From assembly GCA_022840695.1 (NCBI GenBank), contig JALHDC010000003.1, forward strand, positions 11,538 to 75,537: 64,000 nt of DNA, written 5' to 3'. Both the position numbers and the translations under genes were made by a program. Shown in pieces: positions 3,000-63,696 of this stretch. The notes under the pieces are model-generated. The model searched no databases, was not told the origin of the DNA, and was given only the letters and a program-made list of their open reading frames with translations. Source of the DNA: a bacterium (GTDB lineage: Bacteria; Patescibacteriota; Dojkabacteria; SC72). Each line of letters starts with the position of its first letter. The first letter of the stretch is position 1.

Positions 3000-3980
3000 C
3001 TAAATATCTTTTATTATTAAATCTTTTCCTTCTGTATCCTTAAACTTCAATAAAATTGATTTCAATTCTATTTTATCTGGCATACTCCTTTGCGATCCAT
3101 TGCCATACAAAGTATCTCCAATTATTGTCATACCTAAATATTCTAATGTAGCTCGAATTTGGTGCATTCTACCAGTTTCTATTATTACTAATATATCTTG
3201 ATTATTAATAGGTTTAATATATGAAATAGAGTTCTTAGCATTGCCACTCTTGAATATATTAAATTCCATCTTCACCCTATTTCTTGGACTCCTCCTTATA
3301 TATCCCCTAGCCTCATACCAAGAATTATCTAGAAGAAAATCGTTTTTTACGACAGCATCTATTTCCTTCTTTATATTTCTCCCTTTAATCGAGAAATATT
3401 CCTTTATCTCAGGTTTTAATTCAGAGTATTCTACCGTAGCAAGATATATCTTTTTAACCTTATGCTCTTCAAACTGTTTCTGAAGAAATTTCTGTGATCT
3501 ATATGACTTGGCAAAGACTATTAATCCTGAGACCCCTTTATCCAACCTATGCACAACCCCTGCTCGTTTAACTCTACTGTCATACTCCCCCTTTGATTCT
3601 AAATATCCACAAACCTTATTAGCTAAAGTATTTCCTCTATTCCCAATTCCTGGATGTACAACCATGCCCTTCTCCTTCTTTATAACTAGGAAATCTGTAT
3701 TTTCAAAGACAATATCTAAATCTCCTTCCTCCGCCTCTATCCTTACATCAGTACTCATGCTATCTTCTAATTCCTTAACCCTGTCCTCATTGACAAAAAT
3801 TTCATCTCCTTCGCTCAACTTATATCCTGGTTTTTGTACCTTACTATTGACAGTCACTAAGTCAGACCAATTGGATTTCAAAACGGTACGAGTTAATACA
3901 ATATGACCTACACTTTCTAAATATTTTGAAAGAAAAACATCTAATCTCTTTCCTACATACTCTCTAGATATCTTAATCAT
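3000..3980 (-). CDS. RluA-family (RluD/RluC-like) rRNA pseudouridine synthase with S4-like N-terminal domain
   Basis: Catalytic motif HRLDKGVSGLIVFAKS (HRLD..SG). Typical length of 326 aa. Confidence 0.85.
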   Translation of the reverse strand: MIKISREYVGKRLDVFLSKYLESVGHIVLTRTVLKSNWSDLVTVNSKVQKPGYKLSEGDEIFVNEDRVKELEDSMSTDVRIEAEEGDLDIVFENTDFLVIKKEKGMVVHPGIGNRGNTLANKVCGYLESKGEYDSRVKRAGVVHRLDKGVSGLIVFAKSYRSQKFLQKQFEEHKVKKIYLATVEYSELKPEIKEYFSIKGRNIKKEIDAVVKNDFLLDNSWYEARGYIRRSPRNRVKMEFNIFKSGNAKNSISYIKPINNQDILVIIETGRMHQIRATLEYLGMTIIGDTLYGNGSQRSMPDKIELKSILLKFKDTEGKDLIIKDI

Positions 3981-5750: not shown

Positions 5751-6188
5751 TTAGGGACAGACCCTTGTCCATTTATAGTCTTCTGCATTCTTTACAAAAC
5801 CTGCCTTAACAGGATTTTCTAATATGTATTTAACAACCCTATCTAAACCTTCTTGAGATCTAATTGACCTAGCATTATACCTACCTTGAAAAACATGGCC
5901 CACCCTTTTATATTTTTTGTTTATATAGATACAGTAGGCAGTCATAAAACGTTGCATCAATAGGGATAATTTAGAGGGACAGACCCCGGTTTTTATCAAC
6001 AAATGAAAATGATTATCCATAAGGCAATAAGCCTTAATTTTGATCTTGTAGCATCGGTTGTACTTATATAGCAAATCTAGAAAAATCCTCTTGTCATCAG
6101 AATCTCTAAACACTTTCGCTTTGTTATTACCCCTGTTATATATGTGATAATAGGTGTTTTTCTGGAAATCTCGTTTTCTCCTTGGCAT
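5751..6188 (-). CDS. REP-associated tyrosine transposase-like protein (RAYT / IS200-like Y1 transposase, COG1943)
   Basis: YHIYNRG..YCLMDNHFHLL (HxH) ..GHVFQGRYNARSI (catalytic Tyr) ..YILENPVKAGFV: hallmark RAYT/TnpA_REP motifs. Flanked and punctuated by GGGACAGACCC motifs. Confidence 0.8.
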   Translation of the reverse strand: MPRRKRDFQKNTYYHIYNRGNNKAKVFRDSDDKRIFLDLLYKYNRCYKIKIKAYCLMDNHFHLLIKTGVCPSKLSLLMQRFMTAYCIYINKKYKRVGHVFQGRYNARSIRSQEGLDRVVKYILENPVKAGFVKNAEDYKWTRVCP

Positions 6189-45720: not shown

Positions 45721-45740
45721 CTCAATACCTCCACTCACAA

Positions 45741-45760
45741 GGTCTTACCTAGGTCTGACC
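45741..45760. repeat. REP-like 20-bp imperfect palindrome GGTCTTACC-TA-GGTCTGACC (copy 1)
   Basis: Exact 20-mer also at 45803-45822 and 63017-63036. Half-swapped form GGTCTGACC-TA-GGTCTTACC at 59572-59591 and 59668-59687. Central CCTAGG. Confidence 0.6.
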
Positions 45761-45802
45761 CTTTTAGATAGAGAAAAGACCTTTGTTAAGGGGTAAGAAT
45801 GA

Positions 45803-45822
45803 GGTCTTACCTAGGTCTGACC
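45803..45822. repeat. REP-like 20-bp palindromic element (copy 2), abutting the stop codon of the LPETG-protein gene
   Basis: Identical to 45741-45760. The two copies flank a 42-bp spacer. Confidence 0.6.
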
Positions 45823-47289
45823 TTAGAATCTAATTTTTTTCTCAAAAGTCTTTTTCCTTTTTTCGGATTTCTGAATGTCTTGCTCTTTCTTCTTCTTTTT
45901 CATATTTAATTTCATCTCTCGGTCTTTTTTTACAAACCAACTTCTGGTATTACTGAATAATTTTGGAATCATGAATATCCTCTGCCCTATCCATGTCCAT
46001 GTAAATCCTAGGAAAAGAAGTACAGCACCAACAGCTAATGAAGATTCAGTTTCGTCAAATATACCAGTTTCGGGCAAATCCTCTTCTGGAGGTAAAGGTG
46101 GTTCTGGTTGTGTAATTTCACAGTCAGCTGTGATTCTTGCAGATGCAGTTATCGGTTCACCTTCTTTAGGATATGCAGTTGCTACATTATTATATTCACC
46201 GAAGTTTTCTTTTGCGACAGCCATTGTATATGTGAATGTTTTTGTCTGACCAGCAGCAAAAATTTCTTCATTTCCCTGCAAATCCCACACTATCGTTCCA
46301 CTAGAGAATATTCCTCCGGAGGAAATTCCAGACAGATATGATTCTAACACCTTGGAATCTGGATCATCGACAACTTTATCCAAGCTTCCTGTACCTTTTC
46401 CTGTATTTGAAACAGATATTACATAGGATATTTCTGCCCTAGGATTCTCAGTATTTTCATCTACACACTTCTCCACAGCCTGTTTTGAAATACTCCAATT
46501 GGGATTTAGTACTTCTGCTAATACCTCGAAGGAGGTTGTTAAAGTACAACTATTTCCTCCTACTCCTTTTTTGTCTTTCCAACTTGTGGAAATGGTATAG
46601 GAGCCTGCAGGAAGACAATTTGTGGAAGTACTTAAAGTCTCAGAAACCTTTGTTTGCTTTGCTTCTTCTGTTTTAGAAAAACTGCCCCTTGCTATATCAT
46701 TCATCTTTACAACTATGCTGGATTCATCAATGCCATCTGAATCCTTTGCCAAGAAAGAATATTTAACCTCATCACAGTATTCATATGTACCTGTAGGCTT
46801 ATTCTCCCACTCTCCTCCATCGCATTTATTTTGAGGTAACTGTTTACAATATCTTTTTACAACAAACTTATTTAAACAATTCGTGCAAGCACCACTACAA
46901 GATGTTTTCGCTTTACAACCGGATGCTTTAGCTCCAGAATCACCCGATACTCCACAATTTGTCCAACCAGAAGGACATGCAGGAGGATTACATTTTGTTG
47001 CAGTACCACAAGCTTGACCACATGTGAAATTATTGGGAGTTCTACAACCACATGTCCTCCATGCAGGATTCGTATCACTACTACATCCACAATATGCCAC
47101 AGACGGCCATTCGCAGGCAGGACATTGTTTACCTTCAACACAGGTTACTGCATCACTATATTCTGGCGAAAGTTGCTCCTCTTGATTCACTCTCCAAAGA
47201 AGATATATTCCAGAACCTGCTAGTATAACGGCAAAAACAATCATAAAAATGATATTTCTTTTCCTTTTGTTAGGCAGTACTACTTTCAT
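45823..47289 (-). CDS. cysteine-rich cell-surface protein with N-terminal signal anchor and C-terminal LPETG-hydrophobic-basic segment (sortase-substrate-like)
   Basis: N-terminal TM. About 30 Cys in CxxC-rich region. LPETG at about residue 402 followed by hydrophobic stretch LAVGAVLLFLGFTWTWIG and Lys/Arg-rich tail. Confidence 0.55.
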   Translation of the reverse strand: MKVVLPNKRKRNIIFMIVFAVILAGSGIYLLWRVNQEEQLSPEYSDAVTCVEGKQCPACEWPSVAYCGCSSDTNPAWRTCGCRTPNNFTCGQACGTATKCNPPACPSGWTNCGVSGDSGAKASGCKAKTSCSGACTNCLNKFVVKRYCKQLPQNKCDGGEWENKPTGTYEYCDEVKYSFLAKDSDGIDESSIVVKMNDIARGSFSKTEEAKQTKVSETLSTSTNCLPAGSYTISTSWKDKKGVGGNSCTLTTSFEVLAEVLNPNWSISKQAVEKCVDENTENPRAEISYVISVSNTGKGTGSLDKVVDDPDSKVLESYLSGISSGGIFSSGTIVWDLQGNEEIFAAGQTKTFTYTMAVAKENFGEYNNVATAYPKEGEPITASARITADCEITQPEPPLPPEEDLPETGIFDETESSLAVGAVLLFLGFTWTWIGQRIFMIPKLFSNTRSWFVKKDREMKLNMKKKKKEQDIQKSEKRKKTFEKKIRF

Positions 47290-59145: not shown

Positions 59146-59190
59146 AATTAAAGAGATTCTATCATTTAGGAAAGATAATGACGAGAGGTA

Positions 59191-59415
59191 CTACTCTGCT
59201 AAAAGTGTCGCTTCCTTCTTAAGCTTTTTATAGCACTTCATACAAGCAGATACCTTTGTTAATCTACCATCAACTTCCACCTCTATATTTCTTAGATTTG
59301 GTTTAAACTGCCTCTTGGATTTAGGAGCCTTATATCTCCATCCTACTGAGTGCTTATGTTGTATTCTGTTTCCAGCTACTGTGGCTTTACCACAAATTTC
59401 GCATAATTTTGACAT
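59191..59415 (-). CDS. rpmB: 50S ribosomal protein L28
   Basis: MSKLCEICGKATVAGNRIQHKHS..KPNL L28 signature. 74 aa. Confidence 0.88.
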   Translation of the reverse strand: MSKLCEICGKATVAGNRIQHKHSVGWRYKAPKSKRQFKPNLRNIEVEVDGRLTKVSACMKCYKKLKKEATLLAE

Positions 59416-59424
59416 GATGGAGGT

Positions 59425-59453
59425 ATTATATCACCTCATCCCCCGAGGTTCAA
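59425..59453 (-). promoter_or_regulatory. sigma-70-like promoter for rpmB: TTGAAC-N17-TATAAT; transcript apparently leaderless or near-leaderless
   Basis: On the minus strand: TTGAAC CTCGGGGGATGAGGTGA TATAAT ACCTCCATC ATG. Only 9 nt between the -10 and the start codon. No SD. Confidence 0.5.
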
Positions 59454-59521
59454 CTTAGGTCATACATATCGAAAAGCCTTATACAATAACCATACAGAAG
59501 GCTCTACCAAAGTCAACTCTT

Positions 59522-59716
59522 TATACAAGAAAATAATCTTGTTACAACAACACTCTTGTGTACAGAATAAAGGTCTGACCTAGGTCTTACCTTCGTGCGT
59601 TTAAATTGCCAGAAGGTCATACAAGAAAATAATCTTGTTACAACAACACTCTTGTGTACAGAATAAAGGTCTGACCTAGGTCTTACCTTCGTGCGTTTAA
59701 ATTGCCAGAAGGTCAA
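59522..59716. repeat. tandem duplication, 2 x 96 bp (59525-59620 and 59621-59716), each unit carrying a REP-like palindrome
   Basis: The ORF track translation of 59513-59716 shows an exactly repeated 32-aa peptide, so this is perfect DNA duplication. Lies immediately 3' of the RT gene. Confidence 0.8.
59572..59591. repeat. REP-like 20-bp palindromic element, half-swapped form GGTCTGACC-TA-GGTCTTACC
   Basis: Second copy at 59668-59687 within the tandem duplication. Confidence 0.55.
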
Positions 59717-60740
59717 GGGCTAGCAACTCAAACAGTTGATGTCTGAGTGAAAAAATATTGGCGTAATTCGCGAAGGATAGCCAGGAGCGCACGGAGTCTG
59801 TAATCCCCGAAGAATTCGTTTTCTCCTTAATATTCTTCACAAATCGTAAAATTGTGCTTTTCCTAATAAGTTTATAGTGCCTGAACACTTTATAGCCCAG
59901 GAAAGATATCCCCTTCTCCACAGGGTATAGAGCCACCTTCTTCTTATGTAATTCCAATCGCAGCTCCCTCCTCAAGAATTCTCGCAAAATGCCCTCAAGT
60001 TCATGAAGTCTCCTCTTCTCATTACCCAAAATTAAAAAATCGTCCATATATCGGATATAATATTTCTCCCCCAGATCATGTTTAACAAATTGATCTAACT
60101 CATTCAAATACAAATTTGCAAAAAGCTGACTAGTCAAATTCCCAATGGGAATCCCCGTCTCACAAAAATTAAACAAATCATAATGAACCCTACGGGAAAA
60201 AGAACTCTTTATAATTTTTTCAACCAACCACAAAACATTAACATCCCTAACCTTCCTTCTTATCAAATCAAATAGTACTTGATGGTCAATACTATCGAAA
60301 TATTTAGAGATATCACATTTTAGACAATAAACGTTGCCCTCCCCCCAGCATTCTTCCGCAGATTGAATAAACTTATCCAAACGTTTAATTGCCTTATGAG
60401 TCCCTTTCCCTTTCCTACAAGCATAACTATCGTAAATAAATCCCCTATCAAATATCGGTTCCAAAACTGTACATAACGCATGATGAACCACCCTATCCCT
60501 AAAAGGCGCAGCCTTTATCTCCCTCTTTTTCGCATCATACAATGTAAATTGATAGTACTCCCCATGCTTATAAGCCTTATTCATTAAATCATCTTGCAAT
60601 TTCATTATTTCCCCCTCTACATCCCAAGAGAAATCCAAAACGTACTCTTTATACCTCTTACACTTTCGAGCTTTTAAATAAGCGCCGTAAAGGTTCTCAA
60701 AACTACACACATCTTCATAAAGATTCTTATACGTCTTCAT
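59697..60740 (-). CDS. diversity-generating retroelement (DGR) reverse transcriptase
   Basis: RT motifs FRDRVVHHAL, SYACRKGKGTHKAI, DISKYFDSIDH, DGR-type motif IPIGNLTSQLFANLYL (IGxxxSQ) and catalytic YMDD (YIRYMDDFLIL). 347 aa, with no maturase/endonuclease domains. TR lies 190 bp upstream. Confidence 0.85.
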   Translation of the reverse strand: MKTYKNLYEDVCSFENLYGAYLKARKCKRYKEYVLDFSWDVEGEIMKLQDDLMNKAYKHGEYYQFTLYDAKKREIKAAPFRDRVVHHALCTVLEPIFDRGFIYDSYACRKGKGTHKAIKRLDKFIQSAEECWGEGNVYCLKCDISKYFDSIDHQVLFDLIRRKVRDVNVLWLVEKIIKSSFSRRVHYDLFNFCETGIPIGNLTSQLFANLYLNELDQFVKHDLGEKYYIRYMDDFLILGNEKRRLHELEGILREFLRRELRLELHKKKVALYPVEKGISFLGYKVFRHYKLIRKSTILRFVKNIKEKTNSSGITDSVRSWLSFANYANIFSLRHQLFELLALDLLAI

Positions 60741-60928
60741 TCACCAATTAAAAAAGACCTATTAGCCCGAAACTGAACTTTCGCCTAAACTACTAGTACA
60801 ACTTCGGGGTACAGGTCTTAAATTTCTCCCTTTTAATTAAAATTTACTCGGGAAGGAAAAAGATCAGTATTCTTTTTGACCTTGGCTTGTATCCTTGGAT
60901 ACTTCACTCTAGTCTAGTACTCAAAGAG

Positions 60929-61047
60929 TACCACGCGCAACGGAACCCTATGTTACTGTTCGTATTAGATGGTACATTGTTAAGATTCATCGTAAATGCT
61001 CCTGCATTCGTTCCATTATTCCAATTACCACCCCGTTGAAGGGCGCT
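60929..61047 (-). other. DGR template repeat (TR), non-coding
   Basis: 117-119 bp almost identical to the 3' end of the gene 61489-62460. All 19 differences are at TR adenines (coding-strand sense). Confidence 0.85.
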
Positions 61048-61095
61048 GGCGATCTAATCCCCTGCCTCAATAAGGCACAAAATATATTGAAAGAA

Positions 61096-61431
61096 CTAAC
61101 TCACACTCTTTAACCAACCCCCTAACATCTTTCCTATTTCATTAATATGTCCCGATACAAACTCGTATTGGCGAATACTAATAAATTTAAAATCCTTACT
61201 TAGTCTTATCAATACCCTTAATTTATCTAACTTAGTACTTAGTCTTTTTAAGTAAAAAGCCTTATTCCTCTCAGAATTGGCCTCTATAATCCCCTCTAAA
61301 AGTTCTAGAGATGCATTTTCTATCTGTTGGCCTAAAACAAACCTCTGAGACTTAGGAAACTTGTTTATTGTCGGATACAACCACAAAATCAAATCGTAAG
61401 TTTTTTCAAAGATCGCTAAATTTTTGTACAT
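61096..61431 (-). CDS. avd: DGR accessory variability determinant (Avd-like four-helix-bundle protein)
   Basis: 111 aa. ..FEKTYDLILWLYPTINKFPKSQRFVLGQQIENASLELLEGIIEAN..KAFYLKRLSTKLDKLRVLIRL matches the Avd / four-helix-bundle family. Located between target gene and TR. Confidence 0.72.
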   Translation of the reverse strand: MYKNLAIFEKTYDLILWLYPTINKFPKSQRFVLGQQIENASLELLEGIIEANSERNKAFYLKRLSTKLDKLRVLIRLSKDFKFISIRQYEFVSGHINEIGKMLGGWLKSVS

Positions 61432-61433
61432 GA

Positions 61434-61463
61434 TTTTGAATCATTGTACACAATGATTCAAAA
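61434..61463 (-). promoter_or_regulatory. perfect 13-bp-stem hairpin/cruciform immediately downstream of the VR
   Basis: TTTTGAATCATTG-TACA-CAATGATTCAAAA. Position (about 25 bp 3' of VR) matches the hairpin element required for DGR mutagenic homing in the Bordetella phage model. Confidence 0.6.
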
Positions 61464-61488
61464 TCAATCAAATCATCAAATATCTACA

Positions 61489-61607
61489 CTACCACGCGCA
61501 ACGGAACCCCATGCCACTGTCCGCATAAGAAGGTACATAGGTAAGAGACATCGCAAATGCCCCCGCATTCGTACCACTACTCCAATTACCACCCCGCCGA
61601 AGGGCGC
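61489..61607 (-). other. DGR variable repeat (VR) at the 3' end of the target gene
   Basis: Aligns gap-free to TR 60930-61046 with 19 A-to-N substitutions. Encodes the C-terminal about 39 aa, ending GFRCAW*. Confidence 0.85.
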
Positions 61608-62460
61608 GTAATGCTGTAGTATTTCCTCCATAACGCTGATCATTAGTTGCTAGGGTATTTCCACATATACCGTCTGGGGTATTACAAGCTACCCAAACAG
61701 ACCAGTTATTTGCATATGGATAACTCTCATAGGTAAATCCATCTACCCTATCCCACACATTTCCTCCAAAGTCCCATACATACTCACCATTAGATAATTG
61801 GTATGTTCTTCTTTGACTATTCCAAGTCGTTATATTACATGTCTGCCCTGTCCCTGAGCAGGGATCATCATCTGTACTTGCCGCCAGTGAATTCCCTGGG
61901 GTACTATCACTATGTCCATCACTCATTTGCCCAGAACCTGCAGTACCTCCACTCCAGTTCCATCCTACCTGCTCAACATTTTTGGCTATCTGGAGCCACT
62001 CTCTTTCGGTAATTAAATGCTTGCCAGATGCTTCGCAGGCTGTCCTGGCATCGTATTGAGTAATAGAGACCCAAGGAGTCCCCGCTGCAACCGACACCGC
62101 AGCAGAACCACTCTGTTTAGCCTCATACTTGTCAACACAAAAACCCGTTCCACCGTTACCTGGTGGCACCGGAATCATCCCCGTCGGACAATTCGTCGGC
62201 CCCGATACAGTCTCCCCCGCCACACCCCGAATTCTATTCATCACAGCCCCCCAATCCCCCCACTCCCCCGATGAGTCACTCCCGACCCCCTCGTCCTTCA
62301 ATAACTCATAGATCTCCGTCAACCTCGAGGTCTTACCCGACTCCGGCGTCCCCACAAATTGCTCGGCAAACGTTGTTGCCCCAAGGAAGACTCCGAACAC
62401 CCCAAAGAAAAAGGCAGAGAAAATAAAGACGTAAAGCTTGTTAAACTTAGGCAATTTCAT
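61489..62460 (-). CDS. DGR target (variable) protein: secreted protein with C-terminal FGE-sulfatase/C-type-lectin-like fold
   Basis: N-terminal signal/anchor (MKLPKFNKLYVFIFSAFFFGVFGVFLGA). C-terminal RALRRGGNWSSGTNAGAFAMSLTYVPSYADSGMGFRCAW typical of DGR variable proteins. GC-rich relative to surroundings. Confidence 0.82.
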   Translation of the reverse strand: MKLPKFNKLYVFIFSAFFFGVFGVFLGATTFAEQFVGTPESGKTSRLTEIYELLKDEGVGSDSSGEWGDWGAVMNRIRGVAGETVSGPTNCPTGMIPVPPGNGGTGFCVDKYEAKQSGSAAVSVAAGTPWVSITQYDARTACEASGKHLITEREWLQIAKNVEQVGWNWSGGTAGSGQMSDGHSDSTPGNSLAASTDDDPCSGTGQTCNITTWNSQRRTYQLSNGEYVWDFGGNVWDRVDGFTYESYPYANNWSVWVACNTPDGICGNTLATNDQRYGGNTTALRALRRGGNWSSGTNAGAFAMSLTYVPSYADSGMGFRCAW

Positions 62461-62475
62461 ACTACTAATTAAACA

Positions 62476-62973
62476 TTACTCCTCAATACTTGTCAATCTC
62501 GCGTATAACCTATGTAAGACCTTTAGAGATCGCCTATTGATATATAACCATTTGTATTTACCCTTTTTCCTTACCAATCTAGCCTCCACCGGATTTTGCT
62601 TAAGATACTCTATCATATTCAGTAAGTCCTCATATCCATCTAATTTCCGAGCTTGAAAAGGATTCTGGAATACTGCCCCCAAAAGATTATATTTCCGATT
62701 GAAGTAGGAACAGTAGGCAGTCATAAACCTATGCATAAATTTTGATATATCGGAAACGCTGTTCCCCAATCTAAGTATCATATGATAATGATTGGGTATA
62801 AGACAGTACCCGACCAATACAATGTCATACTTTTTCAAATATTTAAGCATTAAATTGCAAAAGTGCTGATAATCCTTCTTTTCTTGGAATATCAAAGATC
62901 TCCTATGCCCTCTATTATAAATATGGTAGTACTTCTCTTTTTCATATAAATATTTGCACTTTGGTTTGCCCAT
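62476..62973 (-). CDS. second RAYT-like tyrosine transposase (IS200-like, COG1943)
   Basis: YHIYNRGHRRSLIF..YCLIPNHYHMILRL..RFMTAYCSYFNRKYNLLGAVFQNPFQARKL..YLKQNPVEARLV. REP-like element 43 bp upstream of its start. 15 bp upstream of DGR target gene. Confidence 0.78.
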   Translation of the reverse strand: MGKPKCKYLYEKEKYYHIYNRGHRRSLIFQEKKDYQHFCNLMLKYLKKYDIVLVGYCLIPNHYHMILRLGNSVSDISKFMHRFMTAYCSYFNRKYNLLGAVFQNPFQARKLDGYEDLLNMIEYLKQNPVEARLVRKKGKYKWLYINRRSLKVLHRLYARLTSIEE

Positions 62974-63016
62974 ATCTCTATTCTAGCAGGGGAAAATGAA
63001 ATTCCGATGAACTGAA

Positions 63017-63036
63017 GGTCTTACCTAGGTCTGACC
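63017..63036. repeat. REP-like 20-bp palindromic element (GGTCTTACC-TA-GGTCTGACC) followed by partial extra half-site TCTGACC
   Basis: Identical to copies at 45741 and 45803. Sits between divergent RAYT and M50 genes, abutting the -35 of the M50 promoter. Confidence 0.6.
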
Positions 63037-63038
63037 TC

Positions 63039-63067
63039 TGACCTCGGGAGGAGGATAGTGTTATAAT
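63039..63067 (+). promoter_or_regulatory. promoter for M50 protease gene: TGACCT-N17-TATAAT, leaderless transcript predicted
   Basis: TGACCT CGGGAGGAGGATAGTGT TATAAT. Start codon 63076 lies 8 nt after the -10. G-rich spacer as in the rpsU/rpmB promoters. Confidence 0.45.
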
Positions 63068-63075
63068 TTAGTATT

Positions 63076-63696
63076 ATGTTATCAGTTGAAACTATTTACT
63101 GGGTGGTTTTTGCGGTTCCGTCGATTTTGATTGCATCGACTATTCATGAGTATTCTCACGGGTTGGCAGCGTTTAAGCTGGGGGACCCAACGGCGAAAGC
63201 GGAAGGCCGTCTAACATTAAATCCCCTAGCCCATATCGACCCACTAGGCGCACTTTCAATGATATTTCTTAGATTTGGATGGAGCAAGCCAGTACCTATT
63301 AATGAGTATAATTTCGAAAGAAGGGAACTTGGAACAGCAATAACTGCACTAGCTGGACCACTCTCTAATATGCTAATAGCCCTGCTCATGGGTCTAATCA
63401 ATTTCGTTTTCAGAATTAATCCCTTCTCAATTTTAGGTTCCTTGCTCCTCACCTTCACTATGGTTAATCTAGGTTTAGCATTTTTCAATTTAATCCCAAT
63501 CCCACCATTAGATGGACATAAGATAGTAAGAGCTATATTGCCAAGGAAACTAAGATATTACTGGGAGGATTTGGAGAAATTCCGTATAGTATTGTTGATT
63601 ATAGTAATAGTACCAATAACCCCTCAGGGATCACTAGCATCCATATTTATTACCACAACTATAACAAAAAGTTTACAGTTACTAGGATTCCTCTAG
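63076..63696 (+). CDS. site-2 protease family zinc metalloprotease (peptidase M50B)
   Basis: HEYSHGLAA HExxH in TM helix. NLIPIPPLDGHKI LDG motif. 206 aa, polytopic. Confidence 0.85.
   Translation: MLSVETIYWVVFAVPSILIASTIHEYSHGLAAFKLGDPTAKAEGRLTLNPLAHIDPLGALSMIFLRFGWSKPVPINEYNFERRELGTAITALAGPLSNMLIALLMGLINFVFRINPFSILGSLLLTFTMVNLGLAFFNLIPIPPLDGHKIVRAILPRKLRYYWEDLEKFRIVLLIIVIVPITPQGSLASIFITTTITKSLQLLGFL

Follow-up and report, generated by a model that had tools for sequence, protein, structure and literature searches.

The locus analysed here is a complete diversity-generating retroelement (DGR), a clean example of a well-known system and not a new kind, and, judged from its sequence, it is very probably a recently active chromosomal DGR of an ultra-small bacterium of the Dojkabacteria (candidate division WS6, CPR/Patescibacteria), in which it rewrites the binding tip of a single surface protein. 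In the 64-kb stretch of DNA that was analysed (hereafter, the window), the target gene, avd (accessory variability determinant), a non-coding template repeat (TR) and a reverse transcriptase (RT) gene were found as four co-directional elements on the minus strand (Table 1), the arrangement that the initial annotation had described. Its reading of these elements as a DGR is supported by an Avd protein that scores above the NCBIfam cut-off and by an RT that carries IGNLTSQ and YMDD and matches its best solved relative far better than group II RTs. The cassette is a minimal four-part set within a housekeeping neighbourhood, and a prophage-borne DGR was rejected because the flanks consist of L28-MreBCD-PBP2 and an M50 peptidase gene; the named relatives of the MreB protein are WS6/Dojkabacteria. 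A 67-aa ORF at 59513-59716 was rejected as a gene, being the product of a 96-bp tandem duplication with no family match. Searched against Rfam with gathering thresholds, the whole window returned two tRNAs only and no match inside the DGR, while the promoter and terminator scan of 59150-63150 gave match counts no higher than those in shuffles, which leaves the transcription unit undefined.

Table 1. Features of the DGR locus and its surroundings (positions in the window)
Feature	Position	Strand	Description
REP-like motif partners	59666-59689, 59570-59593		Just past the RT stop codon
DGR reverse transcriptase	59697-60740	-	347 aa; GIPIGNLTSQ and YMDD
Spacer (Sp)	60741-60927	-	Between TR and RT; 3' part of the DGR RNA
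Small hairpin GGUACUC-UUU-GAGUACU	60916-60932	-	Predicted; spans the TR 3' end
TR	60928-61046	-	Non-coding, 119 nt, 36 adenines; no coding-strand ORF spans it
Long-range helix, upstream strand GGGGAUUAGAUCG	61050-61062	-	Predicted; pairs with 60855-60866, closing TR into a loop
avd	61096-61431	-	111 aa; four-helix-bundle family
Perfect inverted repeat	61431-61466	.	16-17 bp arms, TGTA loop; 22 nt past the VR stop, ends at the avd start codon
Motif GTAGATATTTGA	61476-61487	-	Directly 3' of the VR stop codon; absent after TR
VR	61489-61607	-	Last 38 codons and stop of the target gene; gap-free 119-nt match to TR
DGR target (variable protein) gene	61489-62460	-	323 aa; ends GFRCAW*; VR at the C-terminus
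IS200-like Y1 (RAYT-type) transposase gene	62476-62973	-	Immediately upstream of the target; context, outside the DGR mechanism
REP-like 24-nt motif (two AGGTCNNACCT mini-palindromes)	63015-63038	.	Left edge of the RAYT and DGR block

TR lies in the 355-nt intergenic region between avd and the RT gene, 187 nt upstream of the RT start, and aligns without gaps, at an offset of 561, with the repeat at the end of the target gene (VR). The two differ at 19 positions, and pairwise comparison bears out the earlier claim of adenine-only divergence, since 19/19 mismatches are a T in TR on the plus strand, that is, a TR adenine on the coding strand; the chance of 19 mismatches all falling on 36 adenines among 119 positions is P 1.8e-12. 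The repeat had been described as 117 bp long, and, although the gap-free match and the 19 mismatches hold, its true extent is 119 nt, 2 nt longer. The additional nucleotides are the 'TA' of the VR stop codon, after which TR continues with C (TAC) and VR with G (TAG). The identical ends, previously given as 14 and 6 bp, were corrected: on the coding strand the 5' end is free of mismatches for 9 nt and the 3' end for 19 nt, or for 21 nt once the two extra nucleotides are counted. TR and VR part immediately after the 21 identical nucleotides, and the 3' segment common to both, GGGTTCCGTTGCGCGTGGTA, is GC-rich, at only about 65 % GC. No further VR-like copy of TR was found anywhere in the 64-kb window. 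Read in the VR frame, TR contains 10 AAY codons and 17 codons with a changeable amino acid, which were computed to yield about 1e16 variants of the binding surface, with no stop codon able to arise at any TR-adenine codon.

Avd and the RT are assigned by family models and, for the RT, a structural relative. The proposed Avd-like product scored 132.4 bits against NCBIfam NF033474 DivGenRetAVD (an equivalog model with a cut-off of 80) and matched Pfam PF22296 bAvd at 4.1e-27. Both RT motifs reported earlier were seen in the translation (Table 1), and the protein matched Pfam RVT_1 at 2.4e-23. Its best solved relative is the 328-aa RT of PDB 8ub7_A (E 1.1e-51, 179 bits, residues 2-332), whereas group II and retron-type RTs of solved structure reached E 1e-20 and at most 77 bits; by its motifs and similarity scores the RT is thus of the DGR type. 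The 8ub7 entry is named only 'Reverse transcriptase' and a literature search for the code 8UB7 found nothing, but its length of 328 aa and the agreement of nine entries with nine cryo-EM preprint complexes suggest that it is the Bordetella bRT. Against the NCBIfam group II, retron, Drt and Abi models, the RT remained under the cut-off for all, and an origin as a group II intron or retron RT was rejected, the scores being far under the family cut-offs and Avd, TR and VR being present. The nearest named RT relatives are annotated as Patescibacteria or Pacebacteria, and DPANN archaea follow closely.

Recent activity is suggested by the distribution of alleles across public assemblies, in which VR alleles were collected by way of the protein cluster and of look-ups of the exact protein. 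Samples that carry the element include SRR18493547, SRR29340345, SRR27710297, ERZ272492xx, and JGI 3300028593 and 3300028677. One and the same RT protein is encoded on 23 contigs, and TR is identical in 13/15 loci of the species, while VR occurs as six DNA variants in assemblies of the same species, with 35/36 TR adenine sites varying across the alleles. The genomes that carry the six alleles are 94-99 % identical over the block containing the DGR, with TR and RT nearly invariant. The five further alleles are changed at TR adenines, except at three positions in L008 (three non-adenine changes) and two in L106, whose VR lacks two of the three private changes of its own TR. In L107, a strain of 94 % identity, all six private non-adenine TR changes are also found in its own VR. 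Because six VR alleles are seen against a near-constant TR and RT, and because the L107 VR tracks its TR, unidirectional mutagenic retrohoming from TR to VR apparently is ongoing. Variation between assemblies could in principle stem from older activity, and on a rival reading the cassette would be a decayed, inactive DGR whose TR/VR differences are fossil and whose differences between assemblies are old strain polymorphisms. Such decay would fit the frameshifted RT of a strain that three samples contain (L104, L105 and L113; SRR31593245, SRR31593248 and SRR31593249), which indicates that the element is not active everywhere, as well as the scan of the JGI metagenome collection with a degenerate VR/TR pattern (N at each TR adenine), which gave just one contig, already known; the same pattern had no match in species-representative genomes. 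We nevertheless regard inactivity as highly improbable, given that the window and the 23 contigs share intact, identical copies of RT, Avd and TR, that the VRs of genomes 98-99 % identical over the block are unrelated, with differences at 15-22 adenine sites, that the L107 VR followed the substitutions of its own TR, that contigs break at VR, and that no VR allele contains a stop codon or indel.

In its N-terminal part the variable protein has three lysines and, after them, a stretch of about 23 hydrophobic residues; residues 8-32 were modelled as a helix. The secretion signal claimed in the initial annotation is upheld in part, as a hydrophobic N-terminal helix that may be either a cleaved signal peptide or an uncleaved membrane anchor. 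A linker of about 60 aa, poorly modelled, connects this helix with residues 90-323, for which fold comparison of the model indicated a C-type-lectin/FGE-type domain, as had been expected for the C-terminus. The sequence search against solved structures gave no match to any PDB chain, and no NCBIfam model matched the target. The solved DGR variable proteins TaqVP (Thermus aquaticus) and TvpA (Treponema denticola) share about 20 % identity with the target, whose residues 1-90 are unrelated to them.

In the proposed mechanism, diversification would begin with transcription of an RNA that spans the end of avd, TR and the spacer. In the Bordetella DGR RNA, a 'cPRT Stop' duplex and a TR:Sp duplex have been described (bioRxiv 10.1101/2023.10.23.563531), and possible counterparts of both were predicted here. 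The long-range helix around TR was obtained with RNAalifold from six relatives, three of its pairs being kept via two-sided changes in L101, and may be the equivalent of the cPRT Stop duplex. The small hairpin, which persists in L101 with a G-U wobble and a lengthened loop, is a candidate template:primer duplex for self-primed cDNA synthesis. The spacer, which is highly conserved in sequence across RT relatives of 58-74 % protein identity, contains the 60855-60866 helix strand and conserved predicted stem-loops at 60889-60902, 60827-60853 and 60755-60818. These helices derive from five informative sequences, four of them close relatives, with weak covariation; L100 adds nothing to the structure, since its contig is without the TR region and did not align. 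The sequences flanking TR would thus pair, and the TR 3' end and spacer would form a short duplex, whereupon an RT-Avd complex, as in other members of the family, would copy TR into cDNA with misincorporation opposite template adenines, an adenine-only outcome that is itself directly seen in the TR/VR comparison. The cDNA would then replace VR in the 3'-terminal part of the target gene, homing presumably being directed by the GC-rich 3' segment, the VR-specific flank and a DNA hairpin 22 nt downstream. The product would be a secreted or membrane-anchored protein of C-type-lectin fold, diversified at 17 codons and free of stops.

The sequence downstream of VR offers two candidates for such a target signal. 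The motif GTAGATATTTGA is present after VR and absent after TR, and is therefore a candidate part of an IMH-like target-recognition region that would tell VR from TR. It is found exactly in the window, L012, L014, L102 and L103, whereas L101 retains only GTAGATATT and L015 has the degenerate GTAGAAATTTGG. The second is the perfect inverted repeat, which folds as DNA at -15.1 kcal/mol (z -4.75, with 0/200 shuffles as good). Relatives carry a perfect palindrome at the same place with other stem sequences (ATTGTCATTCATTG in L012, L102 and L103, and GTTTGGATTTTTG in L101), so that perfect pairing, a 4-nt loop and a position after VR only are what is conserved. This palindrome is a candidate DNA hairpin or cruciform marking the retrohoming target, for which the DGR precedent is a hairpin/cruciform downstream of VR (Guo et al. 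2011, PMC3240598), where structure matters and the stem sequence is free. Characterised phage DGR hairpins have GC-rich stems of 7-10 bp and GRNA loops (PMC3240598), as in phage BPP-1 with its 8 bp GC-rich stem and GAAA loop; the hairpin here is AT-rich, with a stem of 13-17 bp (16-17 bp in the window) and a TGTA loop.

The same palindrome could instead serve the expression of avd-TR-RT, as a promoter, an operator or an RNA stem covering the avd start codon, and not be a retrohoming signal. Its 3' arm ends at the avd ATG, a sigma-70-like match (TTGATT-17-TACAAT, 61471 to 61443) lies inside it, and its AT-rich stem and non-GRNA loop are unlike those of characterised DGR cruciforms. However, promoter-like matches in the region are no commoner than in shuffles (10 versus 12.0), and neither the -10-like hexamer nor the overlap with the start codon is conserved, because the L012 palindrome is shifted, its last base lying 13 nt upstream of the avd start with 12 nt in between, and that of L101 is wholly different in sequence. 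The pattern of structure kept and sequence free is, moreover, the one reported for functional DGR hairpins, and the two roles are compatible with each other. An exclusive role in expression is consequently considered rather unlikely, while the role in target recognition stays a candidate, as the palindrome departs from the phage consensus and overlaps the promoter-like match and the avd start.

The surroundings of the DGR raise the possibility of its mobility. The product of the neighbouring Y1 gene scored 38 bits against Pfam Y1_Tnp (cut-off 23) and 59.7 bits, below the cut-off of 80, against NCBIfam REP_Tyr_transpos, and the source annotations name it 'REP element-mobilizing transposase RayT'. 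The REP-like motif occurs in 5 copies in the 64-kb window against 0 expected, and its copies bracket a block of about 3.6 kb that comprises the RAYT and the DGR. This block is missing from a close relative (L097, MreB 93 % identical), in which 58 bp separate the M50 peptidase gene from L28. The RAYT, the REP-like motifs and the DGR might form one mobile unit, a REP/RAYT or IS200-like element whose Y1 transposase moves the 3.6-kb block with the DGR as its cargo. Besides the absence from L097, this would account for motifs within about 10-60 nt of both block ends in opposite order, for the Y1 gene between the M50 peptidase gene and the target in 10/10 contexts listed (of 23 contigs of the species), and for a RAYT-like ORF that also adjoins the DGR RT in L100. 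On the other hand, only one insertion site is known, and the more distant L014 (RT 74 % identical) has the DGR at the same site, which fits vertical inheritance with loss in L097. Most related DGRs are without a nearby Y1 gene, the window has the same motif with no cargo at 45739-45824, and the intergenic alignment defining the block boundaries is weak. RAYTs are, in addition, generally regarded as domesticated and non-mobile, and a mobile unit of this kind appears improbable. As in REP/RAYT systems, an IS200-like Y1 gene adjoins a short palindromic motif that is present in inverted order and also in intergenic DNA; unlike in those systems, the protein is under the NCBIfam RAYT cut-off, the motifs enclose a whole DGR besides the transposase gene, and 5 motif copies were seen, a count that covers one 64-kb window.

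A broader proposal, to which little credence is given, has two parts: a REP/RAYT-bounded block with the DGR as cargo would be gained or lost as a whole, and this RT lineage may recognise its target by a signal of its own, made up of a long AT-rich cruciform with a TGTA loop and the GTAGATATTTGA box, where phage DGRs have a GC-rich GRNA hairpin. If this were true, the REP/RAYT-bounded block would be a route of DGR mobility in CPR genomes that is not tied to phages or plasmids.

In comparison with the prototype DGR of Bordetella phage BPP-1 (mtd-avd-TR-brt), which is phage-borne and has a tail-fibre target, the DGR described here lies on a CPR chromosome and its target is not a tail fibre. No (GC)14-type IMH as in BPP-1 is present, and Avd is too divergent from any solved structure for a sequence match, none having been found by the search. 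The closer parallel is with the CPR DGRs, 'DGR clade 2', which is restricted to Patescibacteria (Roux et al. 2021, PMC8144416); these likewise have a CPR host, are cellular and not viral, and have targets with a C-Lec VR domain and little else recognisable. The nearest named RT relatives, by proximity, make the RT a candidate member of this clade. CPR targets are typically without recognisable transmembrane domains (Roux et al. 2021, PMC8144416), whereas the target here has a clear N-terminal hydrophobic segment. The locus is a further CPR DGR and adds no new principle.

To our knowledge, DGRs are the only prokaryotic system that purposely rewrites a protein-coding segment. They are enriched in CPR bacteria, the lifestyle of which depends on attachment to other cells, and the target protein described here most likely serves in attachment, either to another cell (a host or partner) or to a ligand that changes. 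The six VR alleles, the copying of TR changes into VR in L107, the strain with a frameshifted RT and the relative free of the cassette together provide a possible natural experiment on how DGRs act, are lost and recognise their targets in a lineage that has not been cultivated.

Four co-directional minus-strand parts, namely a target gene, avd, a template repeat (TR) and a reverse transcriptase (RT) gene, were found as the initial annotation had claimed, with a gap of 355 nt between the avd and RT ORFs. The diagnostic IGxxxSQ and YMDD motifs are present in the translated RT ORF as GIPIGNLTSQ and RYMDDF. The TR aligns without gaps to the variable repeat (VR) of the target gene at an offset of 561 nt, as described, over 119 rather than 117 nt, since the first two bases of the stop codon, 'TA', also match; the next base is C in TR (TAC) and G in VR (TAG). 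All 19 internal mismatches fall on an A of the intergenic copy (coding strand), in agreement with the proposed adenine specificity, and the chance of this outcome is 1.8e-12, given 36 A per 119 positions. The identical ends, previously put at 14 and 6 bp, span 19–21 nt at the coding 3' end and 9 nt at the 5' end. No second VR emerged when both window strands were scanned with any change allowed at TR adenines. In the VR frame, TR contains 10 AAY codons and 17 codons with a changeable amino acid, none of its codons is mutable to stop via adenine changes, and about 1.1e16 peptides were computed to be reachable.

Coordinates of the retroelement, its associated motifs and related features (window positions unless another locus is named)
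Feature	Position	Strand	Remarks
Target ORF	61489–62460	minus	323 aa, ends GFRCAW before the stop
VR	61489–61607	minus
Post-VR palindrome	61431–61466		16–17 bp arms, TGTA loop
avd ORF	61096–61431	minus	111 aa
Long-range helix (predicted)	61050–61062 with 60855–60866		just upstream of TR, with TR–RT spacer
TR	60928–61046	minus	119 nt
Short hairpin (predicted)	60916–60932		across TR 3' end
RT ORF	59697–60740	minus	347 aa
REP-like motif	63015–63038		just outside transposase gene
REP-like motif	59666–59689		just beyond RT stop
REP-like motif	59570–59593		repeat of the preceding copy
REP-like motif	45739–45762
REP-like motif	45801–45824
Tandem duplication	59523–59714		96 bp, exact
Second Y1/RAYT-like ORF	5751–6188	minus
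Split RT, L104	3248–4290		176-aa + 159-aa ORFs
Split RT, L105	2973–4015		176-aa + 159-aa ORFs
Split RT, L113	2880–3922		176-aa + 159-aa ORFs

The suggested population test for site-specific VR heterogeneity was approximated by comparing public assemblies instead of reads. At 90% identity, the RT cluster consists of a single exact protein sequence, present on at least 23 contigs; the cluster of the target comprises ten different members, which are near-identical outside the last 39 residues and display seven VR peptides there. At the DNA level, among 15 loci of the same species, TR is identical in 13, and VR occurs as six alleles. As had been anticipated, variation is concentrated at TR adenines, 35 of 36 such sites being altered in at least one VR allele, compared with 10 of 82 other sites (Fisher 9e-20). 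Six of these ten non-adenine differences are accounted for by one locus, L107 (94.4% identical over the block of transposase gene and DGR), whose VR shares all six substitutions with its own TR, and in which all 22 internal VR/TR mismatches are at adenines (stop-codon base excluded). Judged from these sequences, this pattern bears the mark of information passing from TR to VR after the strains had separated. On the other hand, L008 carries three non-adenine changes, and the VR of L106 has just one of the three private changes of its TR. Three contigs (L006, L008 and L009) terminate within, at or just after the VR, which fits assembly-graph breakage at a hypervariable, sample-heterogeneous site. 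The DGR is well preserved and, judging from the assembly comparison, evidently active. In one strain, represented by three sequencing runs (L104, L105 and L113), the RT gene is frameshifted in an A-run near nt 525; its VR is still a distinct allele with 20 adenine changes, and this strain constitutes a natural RT-dead control.

The protein assignments concur with the reading of a complete DGR. With 132.4 bits, Avd clears the cut-off of 80 set for the NCBIfam equivalog model NF033474 ('diversity-generating retroelement protein Avd'), and it matches Pfam bAvd at 4e-27. The RT matches Pfam RVT_1, and its closest solved structure, aligned end to end, is a 328-aa 'Reverse transcriptase' that nine entries contain, 8ub7 among them (179 bits, E 1e-51), while group II intron and retron-type RTs among solved structures reach only ~77 bits and the NCBIfam group II, retron, Drt and Abi models all leave the RT far under their cut-offs. 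8ub7 is presumably the Bordetella phage bRT, as the length fits and the nine entries equal the nine complexes of a cryo-EM preprint (10.1101/2023.10.23.563531). At an E threshold of 1e-20, the RT has more than 7,900 protein matches, and relatives with IPIGNLTSQ or YACRxxKGTH occupy at least 598 loci in species-representative genomes, largely of Patescibacteria and DPANN archaea, with other phyla scattered.

The target has only a sub-threshold match to Pfam FGE-sulfatase (6e-4) and no PDB match by sequence. Its AlphaFold2 model (105 homologues) is confident over residues 90–323, with pLDDT >90 for most of the domain and 78–89 near residues 241–280. The N-terminus is lysine-rich, followed by ~23 hydrophobic residues, and is either a signal peptide or a membrane anchor. 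Many C-Lec/FGE-type homologues (P0049, P0055–P0061, P0066, P0069 and others) carry an N-terminal prepilin-type cleavage/methylation domain (PF07963) in place of the plain hydrophobic N-terminus seen here, so in related organisms this domain family is often displayed on pilin-like proteins. At 49.7% G+C, the target gene is also a marked compositional outlier: the window has 34.5%, the RT gene 37% and the transposase gene 34%.

Relatives with RT identities of just 58–74% still show strong conservation of the avd–RT intergenic region. RNAalifold predicts a long-range helix, three pairs of which are kept via double changes in the related locus L101, and a short hairpin, from five informative sequences, four of them similar, so that the evidence is thin. 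A perfect palindrome lies 22 nt past the VR stop (folded as DNA, -15.1 kcal/mol, z -4.75), and in related DGRs the corresponding position likewise holds a perfect palindrome, with a loop of 4 nt and differing stems (ATTGTCATTCATTG in L012, L102 and L103; GTTTGGATTTTTG in L101). The box GTAGATATTTGA, immediately 3' of the stop codon, occurs unchanged in the window, L012, L014, L102 and L103, in shortened form in L101 and as a degenerate version in L015. In phage BPP-1, retrohoming requires a hairpin/cruciform downstream of the VR, of which the stem structure but not the stem sequence matters, and hairpin elements lie 4–34 bp from the VR in other DGRs (Guo et al. 2011). The palindrome is a candidate target-recognition hairpin, although its stem is longer and AT-rich and its loop is not GRNA, unlike those of characterized phage DGRs; a promoter or translation-control element for avd is a live alternative.

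An IS200-like Y1 transposase gene, called RayT in the sources, lies directly upstream of the target. A REP-like 24-nt motif composed of two AGGTCNNACCT mini-palindromes has five copies in the window, all intergenic (0 expected), and at two positions brackets the transposase–DGR block. In L097, a close relative (MreB 93% identical), the M50 peptidase and L28 genes are 58 bp apart without transposase gene or DGR, while L014 (RT 74% identical) has a DGR at the same site; the 3.6-kb bracketed block is thus an indel, either acquired in one piece or lost from L097. A second Y1/RAYT-like ORF in the window is 40% identical to the DGR-adjoining one, and a similar ORF adjoins the DGR RT in another locus (L100, 1604–1984). 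The tandem duplication begins within the final 18 nt of the RT ORF, with one REP-like motif per copy; RT–L28 spacing is 282 nt here and 186 nt (single copy) in all other species assemblies covering the region, and the duplication is either strain-specific or an assembly artefact. A 67-aa ORF (59513–59716) is its spurious product.

The DGR lies between the M50 peptidase gene and a run of L28, MreB, MreC, MreD and PBP2 genes, and so belongs to the chromosome rather than to a phage. Named MreB relatives at ~75% identity belong to candidate division WS6/Candidatus Dojkabacteria, a CPR lineage. One contig, L110 (GCA_022839185.1, JALHFM010000005.1), is 100% identical to the window until 56 nt into the target gene, and beyond 3570–3571 carries unrelated phage-like genes (AntA/ANT and family A DNA polymerase), with the remaining DGR on another contig of that assembly; an assembly chimera is the probable cause of the junction, a structural variant a possible one. 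The DGR of L012 (229–4251), in which the RT is 68% identical and the TR and post-VR hairpin are of almost the same design, lies beside AbiEii toxin genes in a different neighbourhood and diversifies a far larger target (1,340 aa), which indicates that the same TR/RT module serves different target proteins.

All other defining DGR features testable in silico are present, and the target-recognition elements are candidates; the interpretation given in the initial annotation is supported. CPR bacteria are known for an enrichment of DGRs, including an RT clade confined to them and targets of the C-Lec type (Roux et al. 2021, PMC8144416). The locus would not surprise a specialist. Only two aspects are less ordinary, namely that REP/RAYT elements bracket the cassette and that the hairpin is long and AT-rich; both are leads of low probability. 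The locus may nevertheless be used as a natural case study.
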